From positions 7,538-71,537 of the forward strand of contig VGKY01000004.1 in the NCBI GenBank assembly GCA_016866875.1: 64,000 nucleotides of DNA, read 5' to 3'. A program made the translations under genes and the position numbers. Position 1 is the stretch's first letter, and the number at the start of each line of letters is the position of its first letter. The notes beneath the pieces were generated by a model. That model had not been told where the DNA came from and did no database searches. It worked only from the letters and a program-made list of their open reading frames with translations. Positions 10,108-63,294 of the stretch are shown here, piece after piece. The stretch is from Candidatus Peribacteria bacterium. GTDB lineage: Bacteria; Patescibacteriota; Gracilibacteria; Peribacterales; Peribacteraceae.

Positions 10108-11607
10108 CTACGAACCCTTCAACTGGACAATCCACCGCGAAAGCCGGTTTTTCAGATTTCCCCCTCGCGCAAGCCCCCTTCCTATAGCCATACCGTTCCA
10201 GAGGATGATGATATCGCCATCGGCATCTTCTCGGCATTCGATGTTTTGGCCCTCGAGCAGTTCGTGGAGATCGTTATCGCCGACACTCAATATTCCCCGA
10301 GTGGCCATCGTCCCGCGCGCGATAGCGAGCTCATCGGTGATGCGGAATCTCCCGTCTTTCAGTCCCTTTGCGTACGGAATCCCCATGCTGTAGTCCACAA
10401 TAGGAAGGTGCAATGAGGCTGCTGCCTCGGTCGTGAGCAACACAAGATCCCCTCGGTGGACAAGCATCTCTCCCTCGTGCACGAAGTCGGTGCCATAGAT
10501 ATCTGCAATGCGCTTGCGGATCTCCATCTCCATCGTGCGCTGAAATCTCTCCTCGCGCCTGCGAAGAGATGCACCATGCTCGCGAGCTCTCGTCGGTGCA
10601 ATTTTGCGAAGAACAGCGCAGAAGAACCCTTCGGTGTCGTAGGTCTGGGGCCAGATCCGCAATAACGGGAATGCGGAATGAGGAATGAGGAATGAGGAAT
10701 TACCAGAAAGATGTTCTTGTACTCTGAGCGAATCCTGTACGGCAATTCCTAATTCATCATTCCCTGCCCCTCGAAGCCTTGGCGAAGTGGGGTTCATTCC
10801 TAATTTTCCTGGCTCTACCACCTCTAGTTGATCACAAAATTTGTTCAGTATTTGGAGCACCACGCCTTCGTTTTCCTCGGGTGTGAGCGTACAGGTGGAA
10901 TAGACGATTGTGCCGCCCACTTTTGCAGCGTGCACTGCGGCTTCGAGCACCTCCATCTGGAGCCTCGCCATCTTCGCGATGTTTTCGGGGCCGCAGAAAT
11001 TCAGGGCATCGCTGTCTTTCCGAACTGTGCCTTGTGCACTGCAAGGCGCATCGCAGAGCACGCGATCAAACTGCTCGGTCATCTGCTTTCCAAACCACTG
11101 CCCTACCTTTTTTGTGAGGATGACATTCGTCACGCCCGACCGCTGGCATGCCGTAGAGAGGGTCCACATCCGTTTCTCCTGGACTTCGTTGGCAACGACC
11201 ACTCCCCTGCCCTGCATCATGGCAGCAAGCTGCGTCGTCTTACTCCCCGGAGCCGCACACATATCGAGCACGGTCTCTCCAGGCTCGGGATCGAGAAGTA
11301 CGGGAGGCAGCATCGAGGAAGCCTCCTGGAGGTACACATGACCGAGGAGATGCAAAAGATCTTTGCCGAGCGCCTCGCTCCTATCCTCGCGGTCAATGAA
11401 AAACCCTTCAGGACACCACGGTATAGGATCGAGATTCCATCCGTGATCGGCCGCCCACTGCTTCACGCTCTCCACACTGGTCTTGAGCGTATTCACACGG
11501 ATGCACTTACGGAGCGGCCGCGCGCTCGCAGCTTTGAGCGCTGCAAGATCGGTAAACGGCGCGTAGCGATCGAGGGGGGTGAAGAAATCTTTGTGCATCG
11601 AAGACAT
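10108..11607 (-). CDS. RsmF/RsmB (NOL1/NOP2/Sun) rRNA m5C methyltransferase with internal repeat-derived insertion
   Basis: QEASSM, LDMCAAPGSKTT, DAPCSAQG, YSTCTL, EENEGVV, EGFFCA. Confidence 0.92.
   Translation of the reverse strand: MSSMHKDFFTPLDRYAPFTDLAALKAASARPLRKCIRVNTLKTSVESVKQWAADHGWNLDPIPWCPEGFFIDREDRSEALGKDLLHLLGHVYLQEASSMLPPVLLDPEPGETVLDMCAAPGSKTTQLAAMMQGRGVVVANEVQEKRMWTLSTACQRSGVTNVILTKKVGQWFGKQMTEQFDRVLCDAPCSAQGTVRKDSDALNFCGPENIAKMARLQMEVLEAAVHAAKVGGTIVYSTCTLTPEENEGVVLQILNKFCDQLEVVEPGKLGMNPTSPRLRGAGNDELGIAVQDSLRVQEHLSGNSSFLIPHSAFPLLRIWPQTYDTEGFFCAVLRKIAPTRAREHGASLRRREERFQRTMEMEIRKRIADIYGTDFVHEGEMLVHRGDLVLLTTEAAASLHLPIVDYSMGIPYAKGLKDGRFRITDELAIARGTMATRGILSVGDNDLHELLEGQNIECREDADGDIIILWNGMAIGRGLARGGNLKNRLSRWIVQLKGS
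10668..10807. repeat. Inverted heptamer arrays in frame inside the rsmF-like gene
   Basis: GGAATGC GGAATGA x3 GGAATTA (10668-10702) versus CAATTCC TAATTCA TCATTCC [30-bp insert 10764-10793] TCATTCC TAATTTT (10743-10807). Confidence 0.9.
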
Positions 11608-11647
11608 TCCCTAGACTAAGGCATACGCCATCTTTGCACATGGTATT

Positions 11648-12346
11648 TCATGCTGATTCTGCACCAGACATCTCACGAATCTTCTGCTGCCTAAACTCCA
11701 GAAATCGCACCATTGAACCAACTGTATGCAAATCCGACGCCAAAGCTAAATCGGGGTCTGCGGCAAACGCATCGACATTGAGGTGGGGCAATCTCTCCTT
11801 TAGTTCAGCGAGGCCTGCTTCAGTCACGTAGATCTTATTTTGAGATGGACCCCCAACTCTACGAAACGCATCATCCTCAAACACCACTCCGTTGATGGAA
11901 AACAATTCTCCACGGGGAATTTCGATGCCAAACTCCTTCTCCACGCGGAAGAGGATATCCAAATAATCGATAGACTCTGCGCCAAGATCCGCTTCAAGAC
12001 GAGCACCTTCTGTCAGCTCATCCTCGTCAACACCAAGTGCATCTACTAAAACATCTGTTATGCCTTTCACCAGCCTCTCACGGGTCCAACTGGAAAACTC
12101 TGTCTCAAAGATAGTAGGAGCTCGAGCATAAGGCTGATGAGCGTCAGCATATGATGGAGTTTGTTCGTCCGTCGTGCCGACCATCACGTCACGTTCCTGA
12201 GGAGCGAACAAAGCATGGAATTTTGGCTTGAGCAGCTTCACCAGTTCCGGCACCGAAACACTGGAGACGCCTGCCTGAAGCAAAGCATCAGCGATTTCGC
12301 GCTCGGGGTCAGCCTTGGGAGATGCGATGCTGGAGGGGGCTAGCAT
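11648..12346 (-). CDS. Acyl carrier protein with N-terminal extension
   Basis: VLVDALGVDEDEL..ADLGAESIDYLDILFRVEKEFGIEIP containing the phosphopantetheine Ser; true start uncertain. Confidence 0.85.
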   Translation of the reverse strand: MLAPSSIASPKADPEREIADALLQAGVSSVSVPELVKLLKPKFHALFAPQERDVMVGTTDEQTPSYADAHQPYARAPTIFETEFSSWTRERLVKGITDVLVDALGVDEDELTEGARLEADLGAESIDYLDILFRVEKEFGIEIPRGELFSINGVVFEDDAFRRVGGPSQNKIYVTEAGLAELKERLPHLNVDAFAADPDLALASDLHTVGSMVRFLEFRQQKIREMSGAESA

Positions 12347-12388
12347 GGGAAGCGGATGGTAGCTTTTCAGGAGAAGTACGCAAGGACA

Positions 12389-12946
12389 TTACTGCTCTTG
12401 CGCGGTTGGACTGGTCGCACGAAATTCTTCGAGTGCGCGCTGAGGGTCCCCGCGAGTACAGATTTCCTGGATGCGCTTCCACACAAGATCGCGTTGACAA
12501 TCCCCGTAGCGCAGAGCTTCAAGAACATCGGCAGCATCCTCTCCGAGGTACGAGCGAAAGCGCTCGAGTCGTTCCTGCTTTTCCCCATCGGGGAGACTCG
12601 TATCGGCGGGCCCGAGACCGACGTCGAGCATCCGATTGCGCAGCGAGGGCTTCTTGCGGAATCCCTCAAGGTTTGCATCTTCGATGAACCGCATAGGAAG
12701 ACCGCTACTTGCGAAAAGCGCCTGCATCCTGCGTTGCGTCCAGCCCTGCATTTGAAAGGAAATCTTTCCCTTCAAGCCAGTGACCCTCGAATGCTCGACG
12801 AGTGCCTGAAATCCTTCATCTGTGAAGGGAAGCTTGCCTTTCAGCATTTCCTGGATGCAGCCATAGGCCATGACCTCCACCACCGACCTTCCGAGAGCCG
12901 TTCGCGTGATCTCTGATTGCCGTTGCGCGCGTGGGGATTCCTCCAT
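12389..12946 (-). CDS. Hypothetical protein
   Basis: 185-aa ATG ORF co-oriented with the ACP gene; no recognisable motif. Confidence 0.55.
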   Translation of the reverse strand: MEESPRAQRQSEITRTALGRSVVEVMAYGCIQEMLKGKLPFTDEGFQALVEHSRVTGLKGKISFQMQGWTQRRMQALFASSGLPMRFIEDANLEGFRKKPSLRNRMLDVGLGPADTSLPDGEKQERLERFRSYLGEDAADVLEALRYGDCQRDLVWKRIQEICTRGDPQRALEEFRATSPTAQEQ

Positions 12947-12988
12947 AGATACTTGATCTCTCAGGATCCCAGACTATACTGCCATTCA

Positions 12989-13741
12989 ATGTCAAGAACC
13001 AGCACTTCATCGAAAATCGGGGACTTTCGCGTGGAGAGCTACGGATCGGGGGAGCCGACGATGATGGCCATCGGCGGCCTTGCCTATGCCCCTTCGGATT
13101 TCTCACGCATGGCGGATTATGTCGAAGGTACCTTGCACGTTATCGATCAACCAATCCACGTGGGATCTGTAAAGAGAATGGAAGGATGGCAGCGGTGGCT
13201 GCGCACCGAATACGCAAGGATATTCAGGACCCTCGGAGCGGAGTACCTCATCGGCCACTCGTGCGGCAGCTTTGACGGAGCCCATATCGCAAACAACCTC
13301 CCGTCGCTCAAAGGACTCGTCATGCTCACTCCTCCCTACGGAAAGGCGGGGATGTCGGATAGAAGTCGCTGTGAGGACTTCGGACTCCTTGATCGATGCC
13401 TCGCGAGTCTCTGCGACGACATGCCAGACGACCTCTACCGTTCCATGCTCGCAGAGCACGATGATGAATACGGCCTGCGGATCAAAGACATCTATCGGCA
13501 TGAGATCCCCAAAGGAGAATCTGTCGTAAGAGATGTGATACAGCTAATGCGAGAATCACGCTCCCCGATTCTTGTCCTGCTCGGATCTCAAGATCCGTGG
13601 AACAACGGTGCTGAACCGCCAGCTGAGGGCGAACATATATCTGTACAACGCATGACAAGCGGACATTACCCCCACGTCACACAACCAGAAGCCACAACGC
13701 AATATGTTCATAACTGGTTGCGCTCTCACACCACCCCCTGA
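12989..13741 (+). CDS. Alpha/beta hydrolase
   Basis: GHSCG nucleophile elbow, LGSQDPW acid, SGHYPH His; TATACT 8 nt before the ATG. Confidence 0.85.
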   Translation: MSRTSTSSKIGDFRVESYGSGEPTMMAIGGLAYAPSDFSRMADYVEGTLHVIDQPIHVGSVKRMEGWQRWLRTEYARIFRTLGAEYLIGHSCGSFDGAHIANNLPSLKGLVMLTPPYGKAGMSDRSRCEDFGLLDRCLASLCDDMPDDLYRSMLAEHDDEYGLRIKDIYRHEIPKGESVVRDVIQLMRESRSPILVLLGSQDPWNNGAEPPAEGEHISVQRMTSGHYPHVTQPEATTQYVHNWLRSHTTP

Positions 13742-14355
13742 CATCTCCTTCCTACGTCATGCAACAAATCGTCCATACGGCTATCGGGCAGAGGTGTGGT
13801 GGGGATGGTGGCTCCTCTTGTTGATACTCCCCACAGTTTCCTTCGCGCACGGAGCGTGACGAGAAGAGCGTGGTCCGTGATCGCTGACATCTCGAGTCGC
13901 TCACCTGGGGCCGGGTTTGCCATCACGGAGGTCTCGTTCTTGCGAATGACTCGCCACAGCAACGGATCGTGGGGTCGATGAATTTCATACATGACATCCC
14001 CATCGAGAGAAGAAGTCACCCACTGTCGATTATTGGGAAAGGAACACGCATCTGCTTGCTTCGTTCTTTCGTAGCGCTCAAGAAGGACCTCGTACTGTTT
14101 ATCGTAGTCGGTGGCAACAACGTCATGGACGGGCCTTCCCTTGTGCGCGATTCCCGTCCACTGAGCACTGCGCAGAAGGCCGCGGAGATGGCCATCCATG
14201 AGTACACGATAGCGCTGCAGAAGGGCATCTCGGACTCGGTCAATAGCCTCATCGCAGATAGGAGCATCCGTGAGGTCATCAACTGCATGGTCGATAGAGC
14301 GGTAATACCTTCCCTCGGTCGGAAATGCGTCTCGGAAGCGATGAGAAGGGAACAT
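13726..14355 (-). CDS. Hypothetical protein
   Basis: 209-aa ATG ORF immediately downstream of leuS. Confidence 0.55.
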   Translation of the reverse strand: MFPSHRFRDAFPTEGRYYRSIDHAVDDLTDAPICDEAIDRVRDALLQRYRVLMDGHLRGLLRSAQWTGIAHKGRPVHDVVATDYDKQYEVLLERYERTKQADACSFPNNRQWVTSSLDGDVMYEIHRPHDPLLWRVIRKNETSVMANPAPGERLEMSAITDHALLVTLRARRKLWGVSTRGATIPTTPLPDSRMDDLLHDVGRRCQGVV

Positions 14356-14381
14356 GCGATCGAAGGAGAGTTACAAAAACA

Positions 14382-16886
14382 TTATCCAACGACAAAGCTT
14401 ACAAGCTTACCCGGGACGTAAATCTGCTTAGCTATGGAAGTACCAGCGATGAACTTCGCGACGTTCTCCTGCTTGCTTGCAGTAGCAATGATGTCGTCCT
14501 TCGAACTATCGGACGGAACCTCGATACTCCCCCGAAGCTTGCCATTGACCTGTACAGCAATCGTCATCGTGTCTGATGTGAGGAGTGCCGGATCAAAGCT
14601 CGGCCAACGCTGATCAACGACGAATCCCTCCCCCCCGCACATCTCCCAGAGTTCGTCTGCCAGGTGCGGAGCGAGAGGTGCGAGGAGCTTGGCTACGGTC
14701 TGTAGAGTCGATCGATCGATTTCCTGCTCGCGCTCGAGGACATTGAGGAGCTCCATGAGCGCGCTGATTGCGGTGTTGAAGCGGAATGCAGGGATGTCTT
14801 CAGTGATTTTCTTGATCGCACGATGGAGTGCAGTCTGCGAAGATCCTTTAGATTGATCAATTTTTGTACTCGTGTTTTTTGTTTTTTGTGAGGGCTGATC
14901 CTGAATTATCTCAAAAAGCTTGAATAAACGAAGAGCAAAGCGATCAATCCCCTTGATCCCCGTATCACTCCAGTCCCCTCCTTCGGTGAAGGGTCCCATG
15001 AACATCAGGTACATACGAAACACATCGCTGCCGTGTCTGTCGACGAGAGCGTCTGGTGAAACCACATTGCCTTTGCTCTTGCTCATCTTCGCCCCCTTGT
15101 TGGTAATCACGCCTTGGTGAACTAATTTTTTGAACGGTTCACTATGCGATACGTAGCCAAAATCTTTGAGAGCCATCATCACAAAACGTGCATAGATCAG
15201 GTGCATACAGGCGTGCTCAGCACCTCCGATGTACATGTCGACGGGCATCCATTGCTTCTCTACTTCAGGATGAACCAGAGTCAGAGGTTGATTGTTCTTT
15301 TTTTGAGAAGCTGACAGCTGACAGCTTTCAGCTTTCATCGAAGCACCCTGCGTTTGCAGGTACATCAAATAGTAAAAGCTCGAGCATACGAACGTATCCA
15401 TCGTGTCATACTCCGGCGTCCAGCCCTTACCAAAGAGCTTCTCCGTACGCTCCTTAAATTCGTTCGAGTGCTTGAGCGGCGACTCCCCCGTCGGGTTGAA
15501 CTCGACATCTGTAGGCAGTGTCCACGGCAGATGCTCCTCGGGAACGGGATGCGGATTGCCTTTGGGATCGTAGACGATGGGAATGGGGGCGCCCCAGTAG
15601 CGCTGGCGCGATACACACCAGTCGCGAAGACGGTACTGAATCTTCCGCCTTCCCATGCCAGCTCTCTCAAGCTGATCAATGATCTTCTTGCGACCATCGA
15701 GAATCGCAATACCGCTGAACGCTCCAGAATCGATGATCGTTCCCAACACGGCATACTTGTCGATGTTATCGTACACGATGGATTCACCCTCAGGATTTTG
15801 GATGCTCTGAACAATGTCTAAACCGTATTTTTTTGCGAAATCCATATCACGCTGATCATGTGCAGGAACACCCATAACTACCCCAGTCCCGTAAGTCATC
15901 AGAACGTAATCGGCCACCCATAAGGGGATGCTCATTCCTGTAAAGGGATGCTTGAGGAACGCACCTGTGCATACGCCCGTCTTGTCCTTGTCACCAAACT
16001 GACGATCGAATTCTGATTTTGTAGAGGACTGAGCGATATAGGCATGCACTGCATCCCTCTGCTCCGGAGTAACGAGCGTAGGAAGTAAGGGATGATCGGG
16101 GGCAATGACCACAAATGTAACGCCGTAGATCGTATCCACGGTCGTGGTAAATGTTTCAAGACTCATATCGCAGCCGGTAACCGACCAGACCACATCGCAT
16201 CCCTCACTGCGACCAATCCAATTCCTCTGCATGATCTTCGTCTTCTCGGGCCAGTCGAGGGCATCCAAACCATCGAGAAGCTGCTGGGAGTACCGGGTGA
16301 TATTCCAGTACCACTGCTCCAATGGCTTGTGGATGACTGGAGTCCCACAGCGCTCGCAAGTACCGTCCTGCGCCTGCTCGTTTGCGAGAACCGTTTGGCA
16401 ACTAGGGCACCAGTTCACATTGCCAGCCTTTTTATAGGCCAATCCGTGCTTATGCATCTGCAAAAAGAGCCACTGGGTGAAGCGGTAGTACTCCGGCGTA
16501 GACGTATTGACCATCTTGCTCCAGTCGTACATACAACCGATGCGCTTGAGCTGGGTGATCATGGTCTCCACGTTCTTGCGCGTCGAGGTATCCGGATGCA
16601 CGCCTGTCTTTACGGCATAATTTTCGGCAGGAAGTCCGAAGGCATCAAACCCCATGGGGGAAAAGACCTTCTTTCCCTGCATCCGCATGAAGCGGGCGAA
16701 GCTATCGCTGGGGCCGTAGTTGTACCAATGCCCAATGTGAAGCTTGTCACCGCTCGGGTAGGGAAACATCACATGCGTGTAGTACTTGTCGCTTCCGTCG
16801 GAGAGATCTGCTGCATACAGACCGGCTTCCTCCCAGCGTTTCTGCCACTTGGCTTCCAGAGCCTTCGGATCGTACGTGCGCGACAT
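14382..16886 (-). CDS. leuS: Leucine--tRNA ligase
   Basis: MFPYPSGDKLHIGH, GFDAFGLPAEN, GTGVVMGVPAHDQRD, DWCVSRQRYWG, KMSKS, VQVNGKLRG. Confidence 0.98.
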   Translation of the reverse strand: MSRTYDPKALEAKWQKRWEEAGLYAADLSDGSDKYYTHVMFPYPSGDKLHIGHWYNYGPSDSFARFMRMQGKKVFSPMGFDAFGLPAENYAVKTGVHPDTSTRKNVETMITQLKRIGCMYDWSKMVNTSTPEYYRFTQWLFLQMHKHGLAYKKAGNVNWCPSCQTVLANEQAQDGTCERCGTPVIHKPLEQWYWNITRYSQQLLDGLDALDWPEKTKIMQRNWIGRSEGCDVVWSVTGCDMSLETFTTTVDTIYGVTFVVIAPDHPLLPTLVTPEQRDAVHAYIAQSSTKSEFDRQFGDKDKTGVCTGAFLKHPFTGMSIPLWVADYVLMTYGTGVVMGVPAHDQRDMDFAKKYGLDIVQSIQNPEGESIVYDNIDKYAVLGTIIDSGAFSGIAILDGRKKIIDQLERAGMGRRKIQYRLRDWCVSRQRYWGAPIPIVYDPKGNPHPVPEEHLPWTLPTDVEFNPTGESPLKHSNEFKERTEKLFGKGWTPEYDTMDTFVCSSFYYLMYLQTQGASMKAESCQLSASQKKNNQPLTLVHPEVEKQWMPVDMYIGGAEHACMHLIYARFVMMALKDFGYVSHSEPFKKLVHQGVITNKGAKMSKSKGNVVSPDALVDRHGSDVFRMYLMFMGPFTEGGDWSDTGIKGIDRFALRLFKLFEIIQDQPSQKTKNTSTKIDQSKGSSQTALHRAIKKITEDIPAFRFNTAISALMELLNVLEREQEIDRSTLQTVAKLLAPLAPHLADELWEMCGGEGFVVDQRWPSFDPALLTSDTMTIAVQVNGKLRGSIEVPSDSSKDDIIATASKQENVAKFIAGTSIAKQIYVPGKLVSFVVG
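14861..14889. repeat. Short T/G-rich approximately 7-nt repeat in frame in leuS
   Basis: TTTTGTA CTCGTGT TTTTTGT TTTTTGT, encoding part of SQKTKNTSTK. Confidence 0.5.
15309..15336. repeat. AGCT-core heptamer array in frame in leuS
   Basis: AGCTGAC AGCTGAC AGCTTTC AGCTTTC, encoding KAESCQLSA. Confidence 0.85.
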
Positions 16887-16948
16887 CCCCAGGATGATAG
16901 CAATTTCTGTGCATGCGAGGGAGAACTCTGCTACAGTTCCCGTTCGCA

Positions 16949-18313
16949 GTGGCACTCCCCTTAGTCGCCATCGTCGGCAGACCCAATACGGGCAAGTCCA
17001 CCATCTTCAACCGCATCCTCGGGAAGCGGATCGCGATCGTGAGCGACATTCCGGGAACGACACGCGACCACATCGCGGGAAAAGTCGAGTCTGAAGATGT
17101 GGACTACCTCCTCGTCGACACGGGTGGAATGGGCGGGGGCACCGAAGACACGGATTTCGAGGACGACGTGGAAGCGCAGTCTACCCTCGCCGTGGAGCAT
17201 GCCGACGTCATCGTACTGGTGCTCTCCGGCAGAGAAGAGCTGACGAGTTCTGATCACGCCGTCGCCGAGGTGCTCCGCAGGCGCAAGCGCAAGCATGTTC
17301 CGATCATCGTCATCGTCAACAAGATCGATAATCCTGCGAAGATCGAGGAGATCCTCCCGCAGTACTACGAGCTGGGGATTGGAGACGTGCTCATTCCCCT
17401 CAGTGCGGCGCACGGGTCGGGATTCGGCGCATTGGCAGACGCGATCCGCTCTGGTCTCAAGAAATTGCATTTCGCGAAAGCAACGGGATCCGACGAGGCC
17501 GCGGACGCTCCCCGCGTCGCCATCGTCGGCAAGCCAAATGTCGGCAAAAGCTCGATCGTCAACGCCCTCATGAGCGACCCGCAGCGTGCGGTTTCGCCGC
17601 GGATCGTCTCCGACATCCCCGGCACGACCCGAGACGCGGTCGACACCGCGATCCGTCACGATGGGAAAGACTTCATCTTCGTCGACACGGCGGGAATCAA
17701 GCGAAAGAAAGAAGCGAAACCCGGCCTCGAGACCCTCGCGTACTTTCGTTCGGTGCGAGCGATCGCCGAGGCCGACGTCGCGGTCCTTGTCCTCGACGGT
17801 TCCGGCCCCCTCACGCGCCAGGACAAACGCATCGCGCAGATCGCTCTCGAGGAGGGCAAGGGGCTGATCATCGCCGTCAATAAGAGCGATGTCATGATTC
17901 CCGAACAGCGGAAGAACGCTGCCAACGATGTGCTCACCGATCTCCCCTTCTGCAGATTTGCTCCCGTCATCGTCTGCTCAAGCAAGACGCGCGACGGTCT
18001 TGTGAAGCTCTTCGAGCTCATCGAGATGGTACAGAGGAACCGCAGGCGGAGAATCCCGACGCAAGAGCTGCATGAATGGTACGAGCAGAACATGCGCAGC
18101 CAGCCGATGGCGGAGCTCAAGGGGAGCAAGCACATCACCCAGGCGGACGAACCCGTTCCCACCTTCGTCATCTTCGTGAAGGAACCCAAGCGCGTGAAAG
18201 CGTCGGAGCTGCGCTTCTTGGAAAGCCGCCTGCGTTCGACCTTCGCGTTTGAGGGAACGCCAGTGCGATGGATAACAAAAGGGCCCAAGGAGAAAGGAGC
18301 AGGTAGCAAGTAG
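16949..18313 (+). CDS. der: Ribosome biogenesis GTPase Der (EngA)
   Basis: Two G domains (GRPNTGKS/DTGG/NKID and GKPNVGKS/DTAG/NKSD) plus KH-like C-terminus. Confidence 0.97.
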   Translation: MALPLVAIVGRPNTGKSTIFNRILGKRIAIVSDIPGTTRDHIAGKVESEDVDYLLVDTGGMGGGTEDTDFEDDVEAQSTLAVEHADVIVLVLSGREELTSSDHAVAEVLRRRKRKHVPIIVIVNKIDNPAKIEEILPQYYELGIGDVLIPLSAAHGSGFGALADAIRSGLKKLHFAKATGSDEAADAPRVAIVGKPNVGKSSIVNALMSDPQRAVSPRIVSDIPGTTRDAVDTAIRHDGKDFIFVDTAGIKRKKEAKPGLETLAYFRSVRAIAEADVAVLVLDGSGPLTRQDKRIAQIALEEGKGLIIAVNKSDVMIPEQRKNAANDVLTDLPFCRFAPVIVCSSKTRDGLVKLFELIEMVQRNRRRRIPTQELHEWYEQNMRSQPMAELKGSKHITQADEPVPTFVIFVKEPKRVKASELRFLESRLRSTFAFEGTPVRWITKGPKEKGAGSK

Positions 18314-18324
18314 CAGGTAGCAAG
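18289..18324. repeat. Left heptamer arm flanking the four-helix-bundle gene (contains the der stop codon)
   Basis: GGAGAAA GGAGCAG GTAGCAA GTAGCAG GTAGCAA. Confidence 0.92.
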
Positions 18325-18327
18325 TTT

Positions 18328-18696
18328 TCAAGGAGAGTCTTTCTGCCGTTTTTGTTTGATCGTTTTTGTTGCCTGGACGAGCATCGCTGCGATTTCATGA
18401 CAAAGATGAGCAAGATCATCCCATGCAACATCTTTTGTACAGTTCGATGCCTTGATGATCATGAGCCAATACTGCGTTTCGGATGCCTCTTTGAGTGCGA
18501 TGTGGAGTTTGGAAAGAAAATCCAAGGTACTTTGAGCATATTTTGCCTCTTCGCGATTGGCACCGATACTCGTGGTGGATTTGAGGAGTTGTCCACTCAG
18601 TACAAATGCTCTTTCCCTATCCAGTTCGCGACGAGCATGTACTGCAGCTATGGAAAGTTTCAGTGCCTTCGATCGCAGGGGATGTGCATGGATCAT
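18328..18696 (-). CDS. Four-helix-bundle protein (23S rRNA IVP / TIGR02436 family)
   Basis: QLLKSTTSIGANREEA, DFLSKLHIALKEASETQYWL family motifs; visibly more AT-rich than neighbours. Confidence 0.93.
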   Translation of the reverse strand: MIHAHPLRSKALKLSIAAVHARRELDRERAFVLSGQLLKSTTSIGANREEAKYAQSTLDFLSKLHIALKEASETQYWLMIIKASNCTKDVAWDDLAHLCHEIAAMLVQATKTIKQKRQKDSP

Positions 18697-18757
18697 ATCT
18701 TCTGATCATAGAGATTCTTCACAAAAATACAGGTGTACATTCATACAACCAATCACA

Positions 18758-18792
18758 CTGCTCCTTGCTCCTTGCTACCTGCTACCTGCTCC
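18758..18792. repeat. Right heptamer arm (inverted) flanking the four-helix-bundle gene
   Basis: CTGCTCC TTGCTCC TTGCTAC CTGCTAC CTGCTCC, reverse complement of the left-arm units; abuts the stop codon at 18794. Confidence 0.92.
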
Positions 18793-18793
18793 T

Positions 18794-19402
18794 TTACCCA
18801 CGCCCTTGTCGCATATCTTTCACCCTCCCGTCTTCATGAATCAGAAGCGGGAACGCCTTGATCGCAATTTCGAGCTTATCGAGGAGCTTCACCGGGTCAT
18901 CGTCAAAGACCATGTTCGGGGGGATTGTGCGCTTGCAGAGGTTCTCAATGATGTGGGGAATCGCATTGCTGATGCCGCCGGTATTTGTAAGGATGGCGAG
19001 CGGCCGGCCTTCATCGTAGGCAATGGTGAACTCATTCAATGTACCAATGCCGCCGCCAACGATTATGATGCCATCACTGCTTCGGATATTGATAATGTCG
19101 CGCTCCATAAACCCCTGTCCCGTATAGAGAATAATATCGTTGTCATGTGGTGAGAGATATTCATTGACGTGCTCATATTCCGAAAAGGCGGGCGATATAC
19201 CGATGGTAAGTCCCCCTGCCTCCTGAGCACCAAGCAGAGAATCATACGGCAAACCCGGGCAGGCGCCGTTGATGAATATATGGCCTCTTCGTGCGATTTC
19301 CTGGCCAAGCTTGCGTGCAACGCTTCGTGCATGCTGGCCCTCAGTTTGCGGCCCTGATGCCGATCCCATGACGCCGATCTTGAGTTTGTGATGGTAGGCC
19401 AC
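18794..19402 (-). CDS. LOG/SLOG-family nucleotide-binding protein (TIGR00725-like)
   Basis: IGVMGSA, NGACPG, TGQGFMERD, VGGGIGTLNE. Confidence 0.85.
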   Translation of the reverse strand: MAYHHKLKIGVMGSASGPQTEGQHARSVARKLGQEIARRGHIFINGACPGLPYDSLLGAQEAGGLTIGISPAFSEYEHVNEYLSPHDNDIILYTGQGFMERDIINIRSSDGIIIVGGGIGTLNEFTIAYDEGRPLAILTNTGGISNAIPHIIENLCKRTIPPNMVFDDDPVKLLDKLEIAIKAFPLLIHEDGRVKDMRQGRG

Positions 19403-19456
19403 GTTCTCTCTATTATAGCAAAAATTCGGGGAAAGTACACATTCGCTCAGAGCGCT

Positions 19457-20479
19457 TTATAAGGCGGGATGACCCTTTCCAAGATACGTGATCCTATTGA
19501 GATTGTGCTCCTCGTTCGTCTGGGCATAGTGAATGTTTCCCGCGCGATCATGTAGATAGTACCAATACTTGTGGGCTGCAGGCTTGAGGGCAGCAGAAAT
19601 ACTGGGAAGACCAGGACTGGCAATGGGCCCCGGAGGGAGTCCGCGGAATTTACGGGTGTTGTAGGGCGAATCGACATTGAGATCTCCTGCGGTAATCGTT
19701 CCTGTAGGCTTATCCAATATATACCGGACGGTAGCATCGACACCGAGTCCCATCTTCTGATCGTAGCGTTTCCAAAGTATTCCTGAGATCGCCGGCCGCT
19801 CCCCGTCGCCGACAGCCTCCTCTTCTATAAGGGAAGCCATGGTTATGATCTCATGGAGACTCCTTCCCGATGCTGCGACGGTATCCGCAGAAATATCGAT
19901 GACCCGCTCGCGAAAGGTCCGAAGCAATCTGCTCAGGAATGCCTCCGTGGAAAATTGTTCCACATTCACGAAATACGTATCGGGAAAAAGATATCCCTCC
20001 GTTTTTCCGCCCCGCGTTGCCAATCCCGCACTCGGAGGAAGGAAACCGAACGCGGAAAGATCGCACGACTGCGAGCAGCGCAGAAAAGCGCCCGTAGCGG
20101 AAAGTCCCTTCTTCGTGAGGAGAGCATCGATGTCCCTGACCGTAAATCCCTCTGGGATCGTGAGCGCAATCTCCTGGGCCTTGCCGTGAAGCATAGCCTC
20201 GATCACATCCGCTGCGCTCATCGATCTCGTGAGGATGAATGTGCCCGCCTGAAGCCTGCCTTCACTACGTTGCCACTTCGCAAGGATGCGCAATGCCAAA
20301 GGAGATCGAATGACGCCTTGGCCATGGAGAACATTGGCTATCTGCCGGGTGCTGCTACCCGCCTCTATACGCACGGTCACCCGGCTTTCGTCACGAGCAC
20401 TCACAGGCCTAAGGGACCACTGATACCAGCCAAATGCAGAAGCGAAAAACAATGCAGCCGCAGCAATACATTTCTTCAT
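19457..20479 (-). CDS. mltG: Endolytic transglycosylase MltG
   Basis: TIPEGF, EGYLFPDTY, ASLIEEE, DATVRY, SPYNT, GLPPGPIASPG. Confidence 0.95.
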   Translation of the reverse strand: MKKCIAAAALFFASAFGWYQWSLRPVSARDESRVTVRIEAGSSTRQIANVLHGQGVIRSPLALRILAKWQRSEGRLQAGTFILTRSMSAADVIEAMLHGKAQEIALTIPEGFTVRDIDALLTKKGLSATGAFLRCSQSCDLSAFGFLPPSAGLATRGGKTEGYLFPDTYFVNVEQFSTEAFLSRLLRTFRERVIDISADTVAASGRSLHEIITMASLIEEEAVGDGERPAISGILWKRYDQKMGLGVDATVRYILDKPTGTITAGDLNVDSPYNTRKFRGLPPGPIASPGLPSISAALKPAAHKYWYYLHDRAGNIHYAQTNEEHNLNRITYLGKGHPAL

Positions 20480-20483
20480 GGAG

Positions 20484-20539
20484 CTATTGTCCATGCTCAA
20501 TTGTTTATTTTCAATTCGTTATGCTTAATTTCCCATTCC
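20484..20539. repeat. Degenerate heptamer array at the ybaB/mltG junction
   Basis: CTATTGT CCATGCT CAATTGT TTATTTT CAATTCG TTATGCT TAATTTC CCATTCC; spans the ybaB stop. Confidence 0.7.
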
Positions 20540-20836
20540 GCGCATTCCCTGCTCTGTCGGCAGGCCCATTTCTTTGTACACACCCTGCATCTTCTCCGCG
20601 GAAACCACCTGCGCTTTCTTGAGGGCACGATTGAGTGCATCTTTCAGAGCGGCAGGGAGGCGTGAGCGGTCAGCAGTTTCCGCAATGGTGATGGAGAGAA
20701 TTTCCTGCTCGCCCGATACAACGACGGAAACCCCCTCCGCCTCGGCTTCGACCTGGATCTTCTGTAGCTCCTTCTTCACGCGCTTGGCTTCGCGCTGAAG
20801 GCGGAACATGTCTCGAGCTTGGGAGAGGGAAACCAT
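20525..20836 (-). CDS. YbaB/EbfC nucleoid-associated protein
   Basis: 103 aa; AKRVKKEL..VEAEAEGVSVVVSGEQEI..LKDALNRALKKAQ. Confidence 0.88.
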   Translation of the reverse strand: MVSLSQARDMFRLQREAKRVKKELQKIQVEAEAEGVSVVVSGEQEILSITIAETADRSRLPAALKDALNRALKKAQVVSAEKMQGVYKEMGLPTEQGMRGMGN

Positions 20837-20874
20837 AGCAACAGTCTTCCAGAATTCTCACGTACGAAAAAGTA

Positions 20875-20967
20875 TTTTTCTGGTTTGTTGGTTTTATCGT
20901 TTTGCTCCTTGTTCGAAGAAACGCACAAACGCGCAACCGCACAAGCCAAAAGAATGTACAAACCGGG
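20875..20967. repeat. Inverted octamer arrays in the divergent ybaB/DUF1622 spacer
   Basis: TTTTTCTG GTTTGTTG GTTTTATC GTTTTGCT CCTTGTTC / AAACGCAC AAACGCGC AACCGCAC AAGCCAAA..AAACCGGG. Confidence 0.72.
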
Positions 20968-21042
20968 AATGCCCATCTACCATGGAACCCCGAGATGACC
21001 TTCTCGGAACTCACGTCATCGGTGAGCCCCCCTCTTATGGGC

Positions 21043-21498
21043 ATGATGCACCTTCCCGAGGAATCGGAACGGGCAGTTTCTGCGTCCATCGTGGCTCTCG
21101 AAAGAAGCGGCTTTATAATAGGTCTCGATGCCGTGAGCATCATCGTCTCGACGCTCATTGGATACATCGGAGTCTTCATCATGGCCTATGGATGTTTGCG
21201 TGCGGTCTACGAATTTGCCATGGGTGGCAGAGGGCACGACCTCAGACTCCCCATGATCCGAGTGCACCTGGGAAAGCACCTTGCGTTGGGACTCGAGTTT
21301 CTCGTCGGTAAAGACATCATTGAAAGCGTTGTGCACCCAACCTGGGACGACCTCGGGAAGCTCGGCACCATCATCATCCTCCGCACGCTCGTCACGATCT
21401 TCCTCTCGAGGGAACTGAAAGAAGTAGAGGAAGAGTTCAAGCTAGAAAGCCGCAAGCTCTCCCTCGAGCAACGCAGGGCAAGACTGGGAAAGAAGTGA
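21043..21498 (+). CDS. DUF1622 membrane protein
   Basis: RVHLGKHLALGLEFLVGKDIIESV..PTWDDLGKLGTIIILRT..LSREL; start approximate. Confidence 0.88.
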   Translation: MMHLPEESERAVSASIVALERSGFIIGLDAVSIIVSTLIGYIGVFIMAYGCLRAVYEFAMGGRGHDLRLPMIRVHLGKHLALGLEFLVGKDIIESVVHPTWDDLGKLGTIIILRTLVTIFLSRELKEVEEEFKLESRKLSLEQRRARLGKK

Positions 21499-21543
21499 GC
21501 AGCACGCAATAACAAGGACACATTGTTCCCTGCGTGCAACCTC

Positions 21544-24147: not shown

Positions 24148-24215
24148 TTCTCATGAGTATAGCAGAAAACAGCCATCGGCTCCAGTGCCCAAAGAAATGG
24201 CTAAGAACTCACGCT

Positions 24216-25259: not shown

Positions 25260-25284
25260 AGAAGCATGTTCCCATTCCGTAGAA

Positions 25285-25319
25285 CAATTTTCCATTTTTC
25301 ATTTCTCATTTTTCATTTC
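25285..25319. repeat. Heptamer array abutting the stop of the 3D-domain gene
   Basis: CAATTTT CCATTTT TCATTTC TCATTTT TCATTTC. Confidence 0.85.
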
Positions 25320-48757: not shown

Positions 48758-48786
48758 ATGGAATACGAAGATCTGGTGGGTTATCC

Positions 48787-48815
48787 GCAGAGACGTGCCG
48801 CCGGCACGTCTCTAC
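48787..48815 (-). repeat. GTAG-type REP
   Basis: GTAGAGACGTGCCGGCGGCACGTCTCTGC. Confidence 0.9.
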
Positions 48816-49175: not shown

Positions 49176-49204
49176 GTAGAGACGCGACGGCGTCGCGTCT
49201 CTCC
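49176..49204 (+). repeat. GTAG-type REP
   Basis: GTAGAGACGCGACGGCGTCGCGTCTCTCC. Confidence 0.9.
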
Positions 49205-49231
49205 TGGAAATCCAATGGTAGATACGTCCTA

Positions 49232-50410
49232 TCACCGCAAAGCAATTTTCTGTACCGGAACCGCATGTACGAGGTAGCGCTCAGAGATGCTATCGGGCGG
49301 CCAGCAGGTGTAAAGAATGAGCTCCTCGCCTTTACCGTCGTCATTGTAGCGCGAGGTATCTCCGGCTGGCACGGACTCTCCGTGGGTGACCTCGTACATA
49401 TGGAGCTTCCCGTCGTAAGTCACGTAGACCTTTTCACCGGTCTTCAGCTCGTTGATCCTACGAAAGATCTTCGTGTACTGCGACTTGTCCCAAGGATACC
49501 CCGAGCTATGCCCATAAATGAGGACCTTGCCCCCACCCCCCGGGAAGCTGAAGAGATGGCCGACCCCGTTTTGCAGAGGCTCCAGCACGCCCTGACTCGT
49601 GAAAGGATCCGAGGGATGGATGACGGCGAGATCGCTGATGCCGATACTCGGCATGGAGATGGCGAAGTACTTCTGCGATGCGTATTGCAGAGTCTGTACA
49701 GCAGCAACGGCAATCTGCGGGCGTGATGCAACAATCGCGGGAGGTGGGGAAGTCTCTGGTCCTGAGAATGCTGTCTGGCGTTTTGCTGTGAGGTCGTGCA
49801 TGCGGTACGCCATGGCGAAAAATGCACCGCGGGTGATGGGAGTGCCGAGCCTAAGGCGCGCTGCATGCATCACAATATTTTTTTCTATGGAAGCGTTCAC
49901 GTACGGGGTGAACCACTGGTTGTCACGGTTTTCGATCGAGGGAGAGAGTGTTGCACTCGCCCCCTGGGCCTTCTCTCCATAGGCTCTCAAAAGCATGGTG
50001 ACTGCCTCTTCGACTGTCACCGGGTTTGCCGGGCGGAACGTGCCGTCGGGGTACCCCGTGATGATCTTGCGCTCGAAGGCAGCCTCGACATACGGCGCGT
50101 ACCAGCTCTTCTGGTCGACATCGGAGAAGAGGGGCAGCGGAGGCATAGCGATACGAAGACGTTTGACGAGGGACCTATCTTCGCTGCGCATGCTGAGGAT
50201 CACCTTGAGGAGCTCTGCCCGGTTGATGCTGGCATAGGGTCGACCGGAGCCGTCTGCATACCCCGACACGATGCCTTCCTTCGAGAGGTACGCGTAGACC
50301 GTGGCGTAGGGGGTAGCCTGGACATCCAAAAACGTTGCAGCCTGCGCACTGATGGCAGTCGGCAACATCGCGAGAATGGCCGCGAATGCAAGAGCTCTGC
50401 GAGAAAGCAT
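49232..50410 (-). CDS. SLH-domain / sortase fusion
   Basis: Signal peptide, three SLH repeats (GYADGSGRP..INRAE; GYPDGTFRP..VTVEE), sortase YGHSS, LYTCWP, ERY. Confidence 0.9.
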   Translation of the reverse strand: MLSRRALAFAAILAMLPTAISAQAATFLDVQATPYATVYAYLSKEGIVSGYADGSGRPYASINRAELLKVILSMRSEDRSLVKRLRIAMPPLPLFSDVDQKSWYAPYVEAAFERKIITGYPDGTFRPANPVTVEEAVTMLLRAYGEKAQGASATLSPSIENRDNQWFTPYVNASIEKNIVMHAARLRLGTPITRGAFFAMAYRMHDLTAKRQTAFSGPETSPPPAIVASRPQIAVAAVQTLQYASQKYFAISMPSIGISDLAVIHPSDPFTSQGVLEPLQNGVGHLFSFPGGGGKVLIYGHSSGYPWDKSQYTKIFRRINELKTGEKVYVTYDGKLHMYEVTHGESVPAGDTSRYNDDGKGEELILYTCWPPDSISERYLVHAVPVQKIALR

Positions 50411-52962: not shown

Positions 52963-53014
52963 AGGTAGAAAGTAGCAAGTAGAAGGGAGTAAATACTACT
53001 CCTACCTGCTACTG
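52963..53014. repeat. Short inverted GTAG/CTAC-core heptamer arrays after the nrdJ stop
   Basis: AGGTAGA AAGTAGC AAGTAGA AGGGAGT / TACTACT CCTACCT GCTACTG. Confidence 0.78.
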
Positions 53015-58363: not shown

Positions 58364-59419
58364 TTAAGCCATATCTGACTTCCCTGCGCCAATCAGGGTG
58401 ATATCAGCATCCAGGAGCCTTGCCGCAGAAAAAGCATCCCATGTCCTCTGTCCACCTTCAACGAGCACGCTGGTGATGCCATGGAAATCCTGCGTGGGGG
58501 TGGTGAGAATTTGCAAGAGCACCGGAAGATCAAACTCCCTCTTTGCATCGAGCGGAACACCAAGAATGCGAACACCGCGTTCCTGAAGGATCCGTATCTT
58601 TTCCTCGGAATCTTCGGACTGCCTGGACTCCTTGAAATCATGCATCACCACCATCGTCCCCTTCGCCATCTCCCCACTCACAATCTTCGCAGCCAACGGA
58701 ATCCGCAAATCCGGATCAAGAATGATGCGCAGTGGTTGATAATTCTTCAACCCTGCCCGTCCGGCAGGCGGGCCTAATTTTTCATTCTTCATTCTCTGCG
58801 TCAGCATCGGATCATCGGTCACCACAGTGCCCACGCCAACGAGGATGGCATCGTGCATCGCACGCAGGTGCCGATGTGACCAGGCGTCCTGCTCGCTATC
58901 CGTAATCTTGAGCATGGAGCCATCGGGCCGCGCGATAGCTCCGGAGAGTGTGCAGGCGCGCTTGAGGGTAATCCACGGGCGCCCCCGAGTCATGAGAGAG
59001 ACAAATCCCCGATTGAGCCACTCGCACTGCGCACGCTCCACGGGACCAAAGACAGTGATGCCGGCTGTACGCAACCGGGCAACGCCTTTCCCCGAAACGA
59101 GAGGATTGGGATCGAGCATCCCAAAGACCACCGTACGAATGCCGCTTGCGATAATCGCCTCGGTGCATGGAGGCGTCTTTTTTTCCGTATGACAGCACGG
59201 CTCGAGATTGACATAGAGCACATCCTCTTCACGTACTTTTTGATCAAATTTTTTGATCAATAAGACTTCCGCATGCGGTCCTCCAAACTGCTCATGGAAA
59301 GCTTCTGCAATGATGTTTCCCCCACCAACGAGCACCGCACCGACCATCGGGTTGATGCCGGTATGCCTATGTCCCATCTTCGCAAGCTCGAGACACCGAT
59401 GCATGAAGGCAGAATGCAT
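58364..59419 (-). CDS. ribD: Riboflavin biosynthesis deaminase/reductase RibD
   Basis: NPMVGA, HAE, LEPCCH..PPC, DPNP, AILVGVGTV..DDP, VLVEGG. Confidence 0.95.
   Translation of the reverse strand: MHSAFMHRCLELAKMGHRHTGINPMVGAVLVGGGNIIAEAFHEQFGGPHAEVLLIKKFDQKVREEDVLYVNLEPCCHTEKKTPPCTEAIIASGIRTVVFGMLDPNPLVSGKGVARLRTAGITVFGPVERAQCEWLNRGFVSLMTRGRPWITLKRACTLSGAIARPDGSMLKITDSEQDAWSHRHLRAMHDAILVGVGTVVTDDPMLTQRMKNEKLGPPAGRAGLKNYQPLRIILDPDLRIPLAAKIVSGEMAKGTMVVMHDFKESRQSEDSEEKIRILQERGVRILGVPLDAKREFDLPVLLQILTTPTQDFHGITSVLVEGGQRTWDAFSAARLLDADITLIGAGKSDMA
58740..58795. repeat. Heptamer array with nested 21-bp hairpin, in frame in ribD
   Basis: TAATTCT TCAAC[CCTGCCCGTCCGGCAGGCGGG]CC TAATTTT TCATTCT TCATTCT. 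Confidence 0.85.
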
Positions 59420-59466
59420 GGCCAAAGTATTGCACAGAGGCAAAGCAAAGGGGATGATCACCCTCC

Positions 59467-59820
59467 ATGGATAGTATGGAACTAGAACCGGCACCTGACG
59501 CTTCTGAAAAGCTCAATGACGTAGTAGAGGAGCGTCTGCGCGACATGATTGAACTGTGCCACCTCCTCTTTGAGGTAATACCGGAATTGCGTGACAACAT
59601 CGTCGACCGCATGCTCGAAATTGAGGCAGTGTTTCTTGCTGGGTCAACTCAGAGGCTCACTATGCCGATCTCGGAGCCTGCTTCTGGTCCCAATAATGGG
59701 GAAGATCGGGAGGAGACCATCCGCAGCCTGATGGGCAAGCTTGGCGTGGGATACGAGTCCTTCACGCGCGAGGGCATGCTGGTGGCCTATATCAGACATG
59801 CACCAGAAAATCATGGTTAA
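59467..59820 (+). CDS. Hypothetical protein
   Basis: 117-aa acidic ORF, tightly coupled to the next ORF. Confidence 0.6.
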   Translation: MDSMELEPAPDASEKLNDVVEERLRDMIELCHLLFEVIPELRDNIVDRMLEIEAVFLAGSTQRLTMPISEPASGPNNGEDREETIRSLMGKLGVGYESFTREGMLVAYIRHAPENHG

Positions 59821-62441: not shown

Positions 62442-62711
62442 GATGAAGGTGGGCAGAGAGGGTGCAGGGAGTAGAAAAAAGGCACCCTAGGAGGATGCCG
62501 AGGCATCCAAAAGTCCAAGAGAATATACGGAATCGTGGCAAAGGATGCAATGGCGCTTCCCGGAGAAATCAGCGGGAAACGAGACCCGTATGGCGCATTA
62601 AACGGGTGATACGCAGATCGTGCTCTGTGAAACGATGCGCATTGACCGATGTACGGTCACGGAATGCACCGCGGCATGATCCAGTGCTTCGGCGACAAGA
62701 TCAAGCAGTAC

Positions 62712-63164
62712 TTATTTTGCCAAGTGCGCAAACGCCTTGTTGGCCTGCGCCATCTTGATCACGTCCTGCTTCTTCTTGAAGGCTGCTCCCTGGTCTGTAG
62801 ATGCATCGAGGAGCTCGAGTGCGAGGCGATGAGCCATCGGGATGCCCTTGCGGCTGCGAGCGGCATCGAGAATCCAACGGACGGAAAGCGCTACCTGGCG
62901 CTTGGGAGTTACCTCCACCGGCACCTGGTACACGGCGCCTGCTACGCGCTTCGGGCGGACCTCGACCAACGGTGTGACATTGAGAAGAGCCTTCTGAAAG
63001 ACCTCCAGCGGGGGATCCTTGGTGCGGGTCTTGATGATATCGAGAGCGTCCTGAAAGACGGTGCGAGCAACGGACTTCTTGCCATCGCGCATGAGGCAGC
63101 AGATGAACTTCTCGATCTGGAGATCGGAACCTTCCGGGATATATGCTTTGACGGGCTTGGACAT
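62712..63164 (-). CDS. rpsG: 30S ribosomal protein S7
   Basis: MRDGKKSVA, EVRPKRVAGAVYQVP, MAQANKAFAH. Confidence 0.98.
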   Translation of the reverse strand: MSKPVKAYIPEGSDLQIEKFICCLMRDGKKSVARTVFQDALDIIKTRTKDPPLEVFQKALLNVTPLVEVRPKRVAGAVYQVPVEVTPKRQVALSVRWILDAARSRKGIPMAHRLALELLDASTDQGAAFKKKQDVIKMAQANKAFAHLAK

Positions 63165-63169
63165 ACGGA

Positions 63170-63294
63170 GGAATTATGAAGGAAGAATGAGGAATGAGGA
63201 ATGGATTTCTTCTGGAAAAAATGGATGCGAGTGGATGGCAGAGAACTGCCGAATATTCGTAATTCTTAATTCGTAATTCATAATTCTTAATTCT
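63170..63294. repeat. Inverted heptamer arrays between rpsL and rpsG
   Basis: GGAATTA TGAAGGA AGAATGA GGAATGA GGAATGG / ATATTCG TAATTCT TAATTCG TAATTCA TAATTCT TAATTCT; includes the rpsL stop. Confidence 0.92.

Follow-up and report, generated by a model that had tools for sequence, protein, structure and literature searches.

What produces the short-period repeat arrays that lie at so many gene ends of a small, uncultured bacterial genome? The question is raised by a stretch of 64,000 nucleotides (nt), here called the window, from a Candidatus Peribacteria bacterium (GenBank assembly GCA_016866875.1, 1.12 Mb in 36 contigs at ~56% GC; contig VGKY01000004.1, here C4, positions 7538-71537). An earlier note on the window had listed 16 places with degenerate arrays of period 7, 8 or 9, and had proposed that a dedicated process generates them, leaving element footprints or working by templated synthesis, and/or that they act as protein-bound terminators or RNA-processing sites. 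We consider it probable that the arrays are foldback elements of the intervening-sequence (IVS) type together with gene-less derivatives of such elements, shaped by slippage of whole repeat units. The argument centres on genes for proteins of PF05635 (23S_rRNA_IVP, "23S rRNA intervening-sequence protein"), here called IVP, and on the inverted arrays that surround them.

Repeat arrays in the window and across the genome

Tandem arrays were called with Tandem Repeats Finder at a score of at least 30, and three order-3 Markov simulations served as the null. Rows were obtained at or beside 14 of the 16 places in the window, which establishes that the listed arrays are real. Period-7 rows lie at 10668-10700, 14873-14889, 15309-15337, 18294-18325, 18759-18794, 25287-25320, 37224-37255 with 37286-37318, 39033-39068, 40821-40852, 52965-52984, 58777-58795 and 63168-63203 with 63255-63295; rows of period 9 or 18 lie at 34628-34663, 36870-36907 and 42352-42384, and a period-8 row at 20919-20944. 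The place at 14861 is weak (2.4 copies), and the one at 20484 gave no row at this score, its degenerate period-7 pattern being visible by eye only. Across the 1.12-Mb genome, 249 period-7 rows were found against 26, 23 and 28 in the simulations, and at a score of at least 40 there were 105 against 0, 0 and 0. Periods 9 (168 rows against 31, 25 and 23) and 14 (42 against 5, 7 and 7) were likewise in excess; counts for periods 10 and 11 were at the simulated levels.

The period-7 rows comprise 83 canonical heptamers, dominated by AGCT-core (34+19), GAAT-core (18) and AATT-core (12) classes, and several such classes coexist with 8- and 9-nt units, so that the genome has no single dominant unit. 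Arrays with the AGCT core occur at 49 loci with unrelated flanks, the GTAG core gave 28 three-unit matches at period 7 against 0 for the reversed word, and the 9-nt GGTTGCGAA class is a further recurring class. The earlier suggestion that unit classes recur at distant loci was borne out in this way and, as the same classes recur, they are not locus-specific. Its estimate of 4-6 units per arm also agrees with what was found, the mode being 4-5 units.

The arrays take two forms: some are inverted arms in pairs, which fold into long hairpins, and others consist of one arm alone. Forty-seven of the 250 merged period-7 arrays have an inverted partner within 1.3 kb. Strand skew is strong (median |GC skew| 0.5, against 0.2 for random segments), and in short-loop hairpins the G-rich arm precedes the other 14 times against 3. 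As AGCT is self-complementary, arrays with this core often form palindromes with no loop. When RNA folds of single loci were compared with 200 shuffles, five of the six paired window loci gave z values of -3.1 to -5.9, with 0-2 of the 200 shuffles as good; the sixth, at 42284-42386, reached only -1.4, and the single arms at 25287-25320 and 39033-39068 were unstructured as RNA. Energy per base was dropped as a hairpin filter: the arrays, which are richer in AT, gave -0.18 kcal/mol per nt, compared with -0.23 for random GC-rich segments. As a separate observation, two long direct arrays of a 9-nt TTGCG class lie on the same strand, 1.4 kb apart, in G000 (C13:25435-25500 and 26866-26940).

A cassette of inverted arms around an IVP gene

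One array pair in the window encloses a PF05635 gene; the other 15 listed arrays are without such a gene. The parts of this cassette are as follows.

18294-18325, no strand assigned: left arm of the IVP cassette (AGCAGGT/AGCAAGT units), overlapping the stop of the Der/EngA gene (16913-18313, plus strand).
18328-18696, minus strand: passenger gene for a 122-residue PF05635 protein (Pfam E 3.5e-19), a four-helix bundle.
18759-18794, no strand assigned: right arm of the IVP cassette, abutting the stop of the SLOG/LOG-like gene (18794-19402, minus strand).

The arms are 91% complementary over 32 nt and 439 nt apart, and the closest solved relative of the passenger protein is PDB 2RLD (E 7.8e-19), one entry with five chains. 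The cassette lies between the genes for Der and the LOG-like protein, not within a 23S or 16S rRNA gene, and the Der stop codon is a TAG inside the left arm (18311-18313). Other long-loop pairs enclose ordinary genes or gene parts, which by eye are glycosyltransferase-like or NrdR-like, rather than selfish genes.

The genome holds three IVP genes, with a mutual identity of only 16-22%, and inverted short-period arms flank all three, with periods of 7, 9 and ~8-9 nt. Within the genus, 17 IVP loci were fetched, of which two were cut by contig ends; each of the 15 testable loci has arms of period 7, 8 or 9. We further analysed 80 loci from Acidobacteriota, Bacteroidota, Cyanobacteria, Firmicutes, Nitrospirota, Planctomycetota and the candidate phyla radiation, 78 of them testable. 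Inverted arms exceeded the shuffle range in 65 of the 78, with a best lag of 7 in nearly all, and the arms were 4-5 units long in 49 of these 65. In the cyanobacterial loci L031, L052, L058 and L067, arrays of the TAACTGA type are the arms of IVP cassettes.

A short word recurs beside these genes. The word ACGTTTGTACAC(C/T) stands ~40-60 nt upstream of the IVP coding region, in register, in 7 of 20 genus loci (window 18700-18758; L001 ~267; L002; L185, L186, L195, L199 ~340). Upstream of the IVP starts, the cassettes of this genome and of the congener G006 share an identical stretch of 17 nt, and GTACAC is found upstream in 9 of the 20 genus loci, in register in seven of them. TGTACA occurs in 1 of the 78 IVP loci from other phyla, and ACGTTTGTACAC was accordingly set aside as a general IVP feature and is kept at genus level only, where it may be the promoter or a processing site of the cassette.

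Orthologous sites in relatives and between strains

Whole hairpins are present or absent at orthologous junctions. In a comparison of 29 genomes, the S12-S7 spacer, which is 122 nt long here and holds a hairpin, measures 33-36 nt and lacks arrays in four of five congeners and measures 74 nt in the fifth; other genera carry arrays or hairpins of their own there, with quite different units. The junction between Der and LOG is 22 nt long in G001 and 36 nt in G005, and holds a cassette of 480-491 nt here and in G006. The G006 cassette lies on the opposite strand and has GGAATTA-type arms, and its IVP protein is 56% identical to the 18328-18696 product, against 75-85% for the neighbouring proteins. 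In G003 (contig C3, locus L119) the same junction is taken up by an unrelated insert, 1.4 kb long, that contains a single long open frame; as the cassette occupies this gap here and in G006, the convergent gap looks like a repeated landing site. At ten further junctions, the same gaps tend to hold hairpins of different classes across several species.

The gene-less forms can be compared with a gene-carrying one in G006, where four places carry TGACCAA-class gene-less hairpins that align with the arm of a second IVP cassette (C36:3440-4135) in stretches of 33-68 nt matching at 83-91%, and where the matches of 54-68 nt include irregular parts that are not repeats. These arm matches are the clearest sign that the forms with and without a gene belong to one family.

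Some arrays have stayed in place. Those in the genes for LeuRS (15309-15337) and RsmF (10668-10812) are translated in frame as extra loops of conserved proteins, and they occupy the same site in all five congeners, diverged unit by unit. At the LeuRS site, all 4 congeners compared carry a period-7 array, in G006 a GAAT-class hairpin of 4+4 units in place of the AGCT-type array, and at the RsmF site all 4 have a linker derived from repeats; the Pfam match of RsmF to RsmB-F spans 232 residues for 199 profile positions. Change over a shorter time was seen in strain X6, a near-identical strain from another year's run (depth ~45), which differs by ~48 substitutions in the 20 kb of window 10001-30000. 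The only two indels in this interval are a gain of 7 nt after 18309 and a loss of 7 nt at 18759, both in the cassette arms, and the Der gene still ends on a TAG of the arm after the unit gain.

These changes are what would be expected if the arrays were plain long simple-sequence repeats, arising by local slippage that the lineage's replication or repair eases, with inverted pairs formed by template switching in quasi-palindromes and with IVP cassettes sharing the habit or the permissive spots. Slippage of 7-nt units is a published proposal, attributed to a 2007 survey in the available parts of PMC4679880 and PMC4692102, and it suits sole indels that are whole units, LeuRS and RsmF arrays fixed in site, and AGCT arrays that share nothing beyond their units. 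We nevertheless judge it unlikely as the whole explanation, as one unit class, that with the AGCT core, stands at 49 unrelated loci, as the G006 hairpins match a cassette arm over irregular sequence as well, and as hairpins come and go whole at orthologous junctions. The reading that we prefer, IVS-type foldback elements and their gene-less derivatives, takes in slippage of whole units beside element-like spread, so that both processes would operate.

Array density and IVP genes among relatives

Single unit classes have expanded in bursts that are specific to species. Four-unit matches to the AGCT-core pattern number 66 here; three congeners have 16, 8 and 3, another three have none, and the reversed-word control gave 0 matches. 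GAAT-core matches occur in six of six congeners, reaching 77 in G010. PF05635 was found in 30 of 41 genomes, and one or both core patterns are present in 25 of the 30 IVP-bearing genomes against 1 of the 11 IVP-less ones (Fisher 2.5e-5, uncorrected). G015, at ~1.1 Mb and 85% complete, has 24 PF05635 matches, by far the most among the 41.

To make the comparison independent of the unit, we counted Tandem Repeats Finder rows on 48-100 kb per genome. Period-7 rows number 1-5 per 100 kb in six of six IVP-less genomes, equal to their simulations, and 8-63 per 100 kb in six IVP-bearing genomes, the two sets covering the same range of GC content; this genome has 22 and G006 has 46. The excess therefore tracks IVP genes among these relatives. 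Together with the recurrence of classes at many loci without similarity in the flanks, the expansion of classes in single species and the 54-68 nt shared with an IVP arm in G006, this supports the earlier proposal of a dedicated process that leaves element footprints.

Loss of mismatch repair was considered as a cause of the arrays, and it bears on the slippage alternative, which canonical MutS (PF00488) would favour by its absence: none was found in 25 genomes of the family (f1). G001 and G003 gave only weak MutS matches, in a 1200-residue frame. The 25 genomes include array-free members, so that repair loss alone does not explain the difference in density, and it was rejected as the cause. 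Within this MutS-less family, density follows the IVP genes, from background (G007, G013, G019 and G021) up to 20-60 per 100 kb, which again counts against slippage as the source.

The other arrays of the window

The remaining arrays of the window are listed here by position.

10668-10812, minus strand: in-frame hairpin in the RsmF-type methyltransferase gene (10108-11607, minus strand), with GGAATGA x4.7 at 10668-10700 pairing with ATTCC-type units at 10745-10763 and 10795-10812 (fold -48.8 kcal/mol, z -3.4).
14873-14889, minus strand: weak T-rich period-7 run of 2.4 copies in a variable LeuRS linker.
15309-15337, minus strand: loop-free palindromic array with an AGCT core (units AGCTGAC and AGCTTTC), read in frame within LeuRS (14382-16955, minus strand).
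20484-20530, minus strand: degenerate AATTG-type period-7 stretch, recognised by eye, occupying the 24 nt between two genes of the minus strand; in congeners, the junction either carries a different array or is array-free.
20880-20944, plus strand: period-8 stretch (TGGTTTGT-type units, then AAACGCAC x3.2) at a divergent junction, where G001, G003 and G006 have period-9 or period-7 hairpins of their own.
25287-25320, minus strand: single arm (ATTTTTC/ATTTCTC units) filling the 23-nt gap between two minus-strand genes (fold z +0.5).
34611-34712, no strand assigned: period-9 hairpin of GTTGATGGG-type units that immediately follows the stop at 34610, at a convergent junction (-38.7 kcal/mol, z -3.4, 0 of 200 shuffles as good); in G006 this junction holds a TGACCAA-class hairpin.
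36870-36907, plus strand: single period-9 arm (GGTTGCGAA-type), of the same class as the IVP-cassette arms on contig C14 of this genome and on G001:C16.
37224-37318, no strand assigned: AGCT-core hairpin directly after the stop at 37219 (-43.2 kcal/mol, z -5.5), with a terminator-like score too.
39033-39068, minus strand: single arm of the GTAG class, with CCTACTT/CCCTACC units, flanked by two genes of the minus strand (fold z -0.7).
40821-40852, plus strand: single arm of AATTCTC units, shortly before the start of gene 40859-42283; absent from the G006 junction.
42286-42384, no strand assigned: period-9 hairpin (GGGTTTGTT / AAACCCCAG units) directly after the stop at 42283 (z -1.4); absent from G006.
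52963-53012, no strand assigned: GTAG-class hairpin filling the 52-nt gap between two minus-strand genes (-22.5 kcal/mol, z -5.9); G001 also has a GTAG-class hairpin at this junction.
58740-58795, minus strand: ATTCTTC units flanking a GC-rich palindrome (58755-58773), inside frame 58364-59494.
63168-63295, minus strand: GAAT-class hairpin (GAGGAAT x5 / ATTCTTA x6, 52-nt loop) filling the 122-nt gap that separates the ribosomal protein genes for S12 and S7 (z -3.1, 0 of 200 shuffles as good).

GC-rich palindromes are nested within two of these heptamer arrays, at 10763-10793 and 58755-58773, and similar nesting occurs in the S12-S7 spacers of relatives (L086 and L097). The palindrome at 10763-10793 has matches of ~30 nt at 94-100% on several contigs of four congeners, from which we take it to be a separate, dispersed small palindrome that seemingly lands in arrays. 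A further inverted pair, at 48777-48815 and 49176-49214 between genes 46274-48757 and 49232-50410, has arms of 39 nt each that are 77% complementary and 360 nt apart; each lies on a GC-rich palindrome and is not built of heptamers.

Array positions and the terminator question

Genes were called with a crude in-house open reading frame (ORF) caller (926 genes, 85% coding), and the claim that arrays are locked to gene boundaries was examined against these calls. The enrichment part of the claim stood. Among the 250 merged period-7 arrays, 40% are intergenic against 15% of random places, and 45% have a called gene end no more than 30 nt away, against 12%. When the arrays were re-placed at random in the same spacers, 38.5 +/- 3.5 of 97 fell within 10 nt of a gene end, compared with the 61 observed. 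A third (33%, against 18%) lie no more than 5 nt from a stop codon, a closeness that is due in part to units that themselves carry stop codons. The locking part did not stand, as 113 of 216 loci genome-wide lie inside called frames; in the window this holds for 4 of the 16 places, one in RsmF, two in LeuRS and one in the gene at 58364-59494.

Placement of this kind could also reflect selection in place, with the arrays serving as cis-elements: RNase III sites that uncouple cistrons, RNA-binding-protein sites that tune downstream translation, or protein-dependent terminators. The abutment on stops and starts beyond random placement in the same spacers speaks for such a role, as does the strong folding of the paired forms in a genome that encodes RNase III (C27:5334-5720), and so does the finding that several species have arrays of differing units at shared junctions. 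Terminator scans, which covered bases 1-60000 of the window, returned 15 terminator-like sites against 15.5 in shuffles, 26 against 16.2 +/- 4.7 and 25 against 18.6 +/- 4.1; classical sites are thus not above shuffles, and another 3'-end signal may be needed. Terminator-like scores fell on arrays only at 37229-37253, 37298-37321, 52986-53002 and 58755-58773. A translational role would also echo the idea put forward in the accessible part of PMC4679880, given leaders that are G-poor: in the 40 nt upstream of called starts, across the whole genome and with starts crudely called, G is scarce, at 0.14-0.21 over the final 20 nt, and shows no peak of the Shine-Dalgarno kind, which suggests that initiation is largely independent of Shine-Dalgarno sites.

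Against selection in place, IVP-less relatives run the same operons with spacers of 7-36 nt and no arrays, and the sequence of the units is not conserved at orthologous sites. Arrays also stand in frame in the essential LeuRS and RsmF genes and inside the S12-S7 junction, and convergent junctions show no enrichment (15 of 101 intergenic loci, against 191 of 890 junctions). The sense strand folds no better than the antisense (21 against 38 loci, 15 equal), a crude comparison of little weight, its locus set having come from the failed energy filter. We hold selection in place to be quite improbable overall, and the proposal that the arrays are protein-bound terminators is not supported, in view of the in-frame arrays, the S12-S7 array, the convergent junctions and the array-free operons of relatives. 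Rfam matched no known RNA family on the arrays of the window; a tRNA gene at 32164-32237 is its sole match there. We read the arrays as largely selfish or neutral DNA, not terminators.

A proposed family of foldback inserts

Under the explanation that we favour, each array would be an arm, with or without its partner, of a foldback insert, and the inserts would form a family made of tandem 7-nt units or, less often, units of 8-9 nt. The full form would be represented by the cassette at 18294-18794, with two inverted arms of 4-5 units around a PF05635 gene, which is the design of ORF-bearing 23S rRNA intervening sequences, here placed between protein genes. Most other arrays would be gene-less versions, in the form of short-loop hairpins, zero-loop palindromes and single arms, that survive where a compact genome tolerates them, at gene junctions and in floppy protein linkers. 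The gene-less arrays may descend from IVP cassettes or may have been moved by the same means. The pentameric IVP protein might recognise a run of about five units, and transcribed paired arms might be cut by RNase III, by analogy with rRNA intervening sequences.

Several observations weigh against this explanation. No IVP cassette of this genome has arms that match the AGCT-core class, the most abundant with its 49 loci; similarity within that class is confined to the units, so that its descent from a cassette is something we infer. No target-site duplication is visible where filled and empty junctions are compared, nor did reading the ORFs by eye reveal a transposase or any other known mobility function; IVP itself is not known to be a transposase. 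Old arrays, those in LeuRS and RsmF, drift in place at one site in all five congeners, and slippage plus drift alone explains much of the variety of the arrays. Arm polarity is modest, the G-rich arm coming first in 42 against 19 of the 65 armed loci from other phyla, and stop codons are firm in our crude calls while starts are uncertain, which makes distances to start codons soft. Phylogenetic correction of the comparison among relatives leaves four independent contrasts, of which about three point the same way, none the opposite way and about one shows no difference (sign test p 0.25), so that the link between IVP genes and arrays is consistent, not proven. Single genomes also depart from it, G022 having no IVP match and yet 6 pattern matches, and G012 having 4 IVP matches and yet only 8 rows per 100 kb.

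Comparison with known systems

The palindromic elements of Rickettsia are in-frame palindromic repeats with a fixed consensus of 100-150 nt. Like them, the arrays described here add short loops to essential proteins (LeuRS and RsmF); unlike them, they are built of tandem heptamers, with units that turn over at the same site. A possible second likeness is to miniature inverted-repeat transposable elements, in that the gene-less copies of G006 share inverted ends with a gene-carrying copy and in that bursts are species-specific. Unlike such elements, the arrays came with no visible target-site duplication or transposase, and the similarity among copies in this genome is limited to the repeat units.

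We know of no function assigned to PF05635 proteins since their discovery in rRNA intervening sequences. If the arrays and PF05635 belong together, the puzzles of both become testable. The arrays also matter for gene calling, strain typing and the assembly of small uncultured genomes: they skew start and stop calls, lengthen essential enzymes by translated linkers, and differ between strains by entire units.

The published accounts of related repeats cited here were available in part, and what follows is limited to those parts. Heptanucleotide repeats are reported there to be the commonest long simple repeats in many bacteria, with detailed study said to be lacking (PMC4692102). Xanthomonas carries GGGAATC heptamer repeats in 70-75 convergent pairs per genome, and Nostoc likewise has heptameric repeats (PMC4692102). 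These resemble the present arrays in their intergenic period-7 excess, in their many inverted stem-loop pairs and in a length and sequence that vary between close relatives; they differ in that Xanthomonas has one G-rich unit, compared with the several classes here (the 83 canonical heptamers plus 8- and 9-nt units), and in that about half of the loci here lie inside open frames and a link to IVP genes is found here only. Direct TAACTGA repeats, for which a translational role has been proposed, occur in marine Beggiatoaceae, Cyanobacteria and Bacteroidetes (PMC4679880). They too are short arrays (2-6 units) near start codons, with few Shine-Dalgarno sites and a patchy spread across phyla, but the available text describes one dominant unit, almost always direct with one inverted case, and no link to a passenger gene (PMC4679880).

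A wider reading, which we offer tentatively as a possible but doubtful one, is that the PF05635 protein would be the trans-acting factor of selfish foldback elements found throughout prokaryotes. Its pentamer might read about five heptamers, one per subunit, and might drive or protect the copying of arrays with or without the gene. The bacterial excess of heptanucleotide repeats (GGGAATC of Xanthomonas, TAACTGA of Beggiatoa and cyanobacteria, cyanobacterial heptamer repeats) would then be its footprint, rather than a property of DNA polymerase, and rRNA intervening sequences would be one special landing site.

In a literature search with subscription journals and supplementary files outside its reach, no paper was found that ties PF05635 genes outside rRNA to heptamer arrays, nor any description of heptamer arrays in Peribacteria, and heptamers beside a gene for S23p were found only for the IVS of Coxiella, in the available part of PMC4990558. 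The repeat class itself is thus already published (PMC4692102, PMC4679880), as are heptamers beside S23p for Coxiella; the general tie to PF05635 and the co-occurrence at the level of genomes were not found in print within that reach.

Among the known systems that come closest is the ORF-bearing 23S rRNA IVS, as in Coxiella (S23p) and Leptospira, in which a small ORF of the PF05635 family lies between terminal inverted repeats with a stem of ~28 bp (PMC4990558). In Coxiella burnetii, the 28-bp terminal stem contains tandem GACAGAT heptamers, two or three depending on the strain, and is a site of RNase III cleavage; the S23p homologue assembles as a homopentamer (PMC4990558). The cassette described here shares with it an arm of tandem heptamers whose unit number varies between strains, and a protein family that forms a pentamer of four-helix bundles, in an element viewed as selfish (PMC4990558). 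Unlike the Coxiella IVS, as it is described in the part of PMC4990558 available, the cassette stands between the Der and LOG-like genes and not in rRNA, both of its arms are whole arrays of 4-5 units, and it is accompanied in the genome by ~215 gene-less array loci of the same build, some of them translated in frame.

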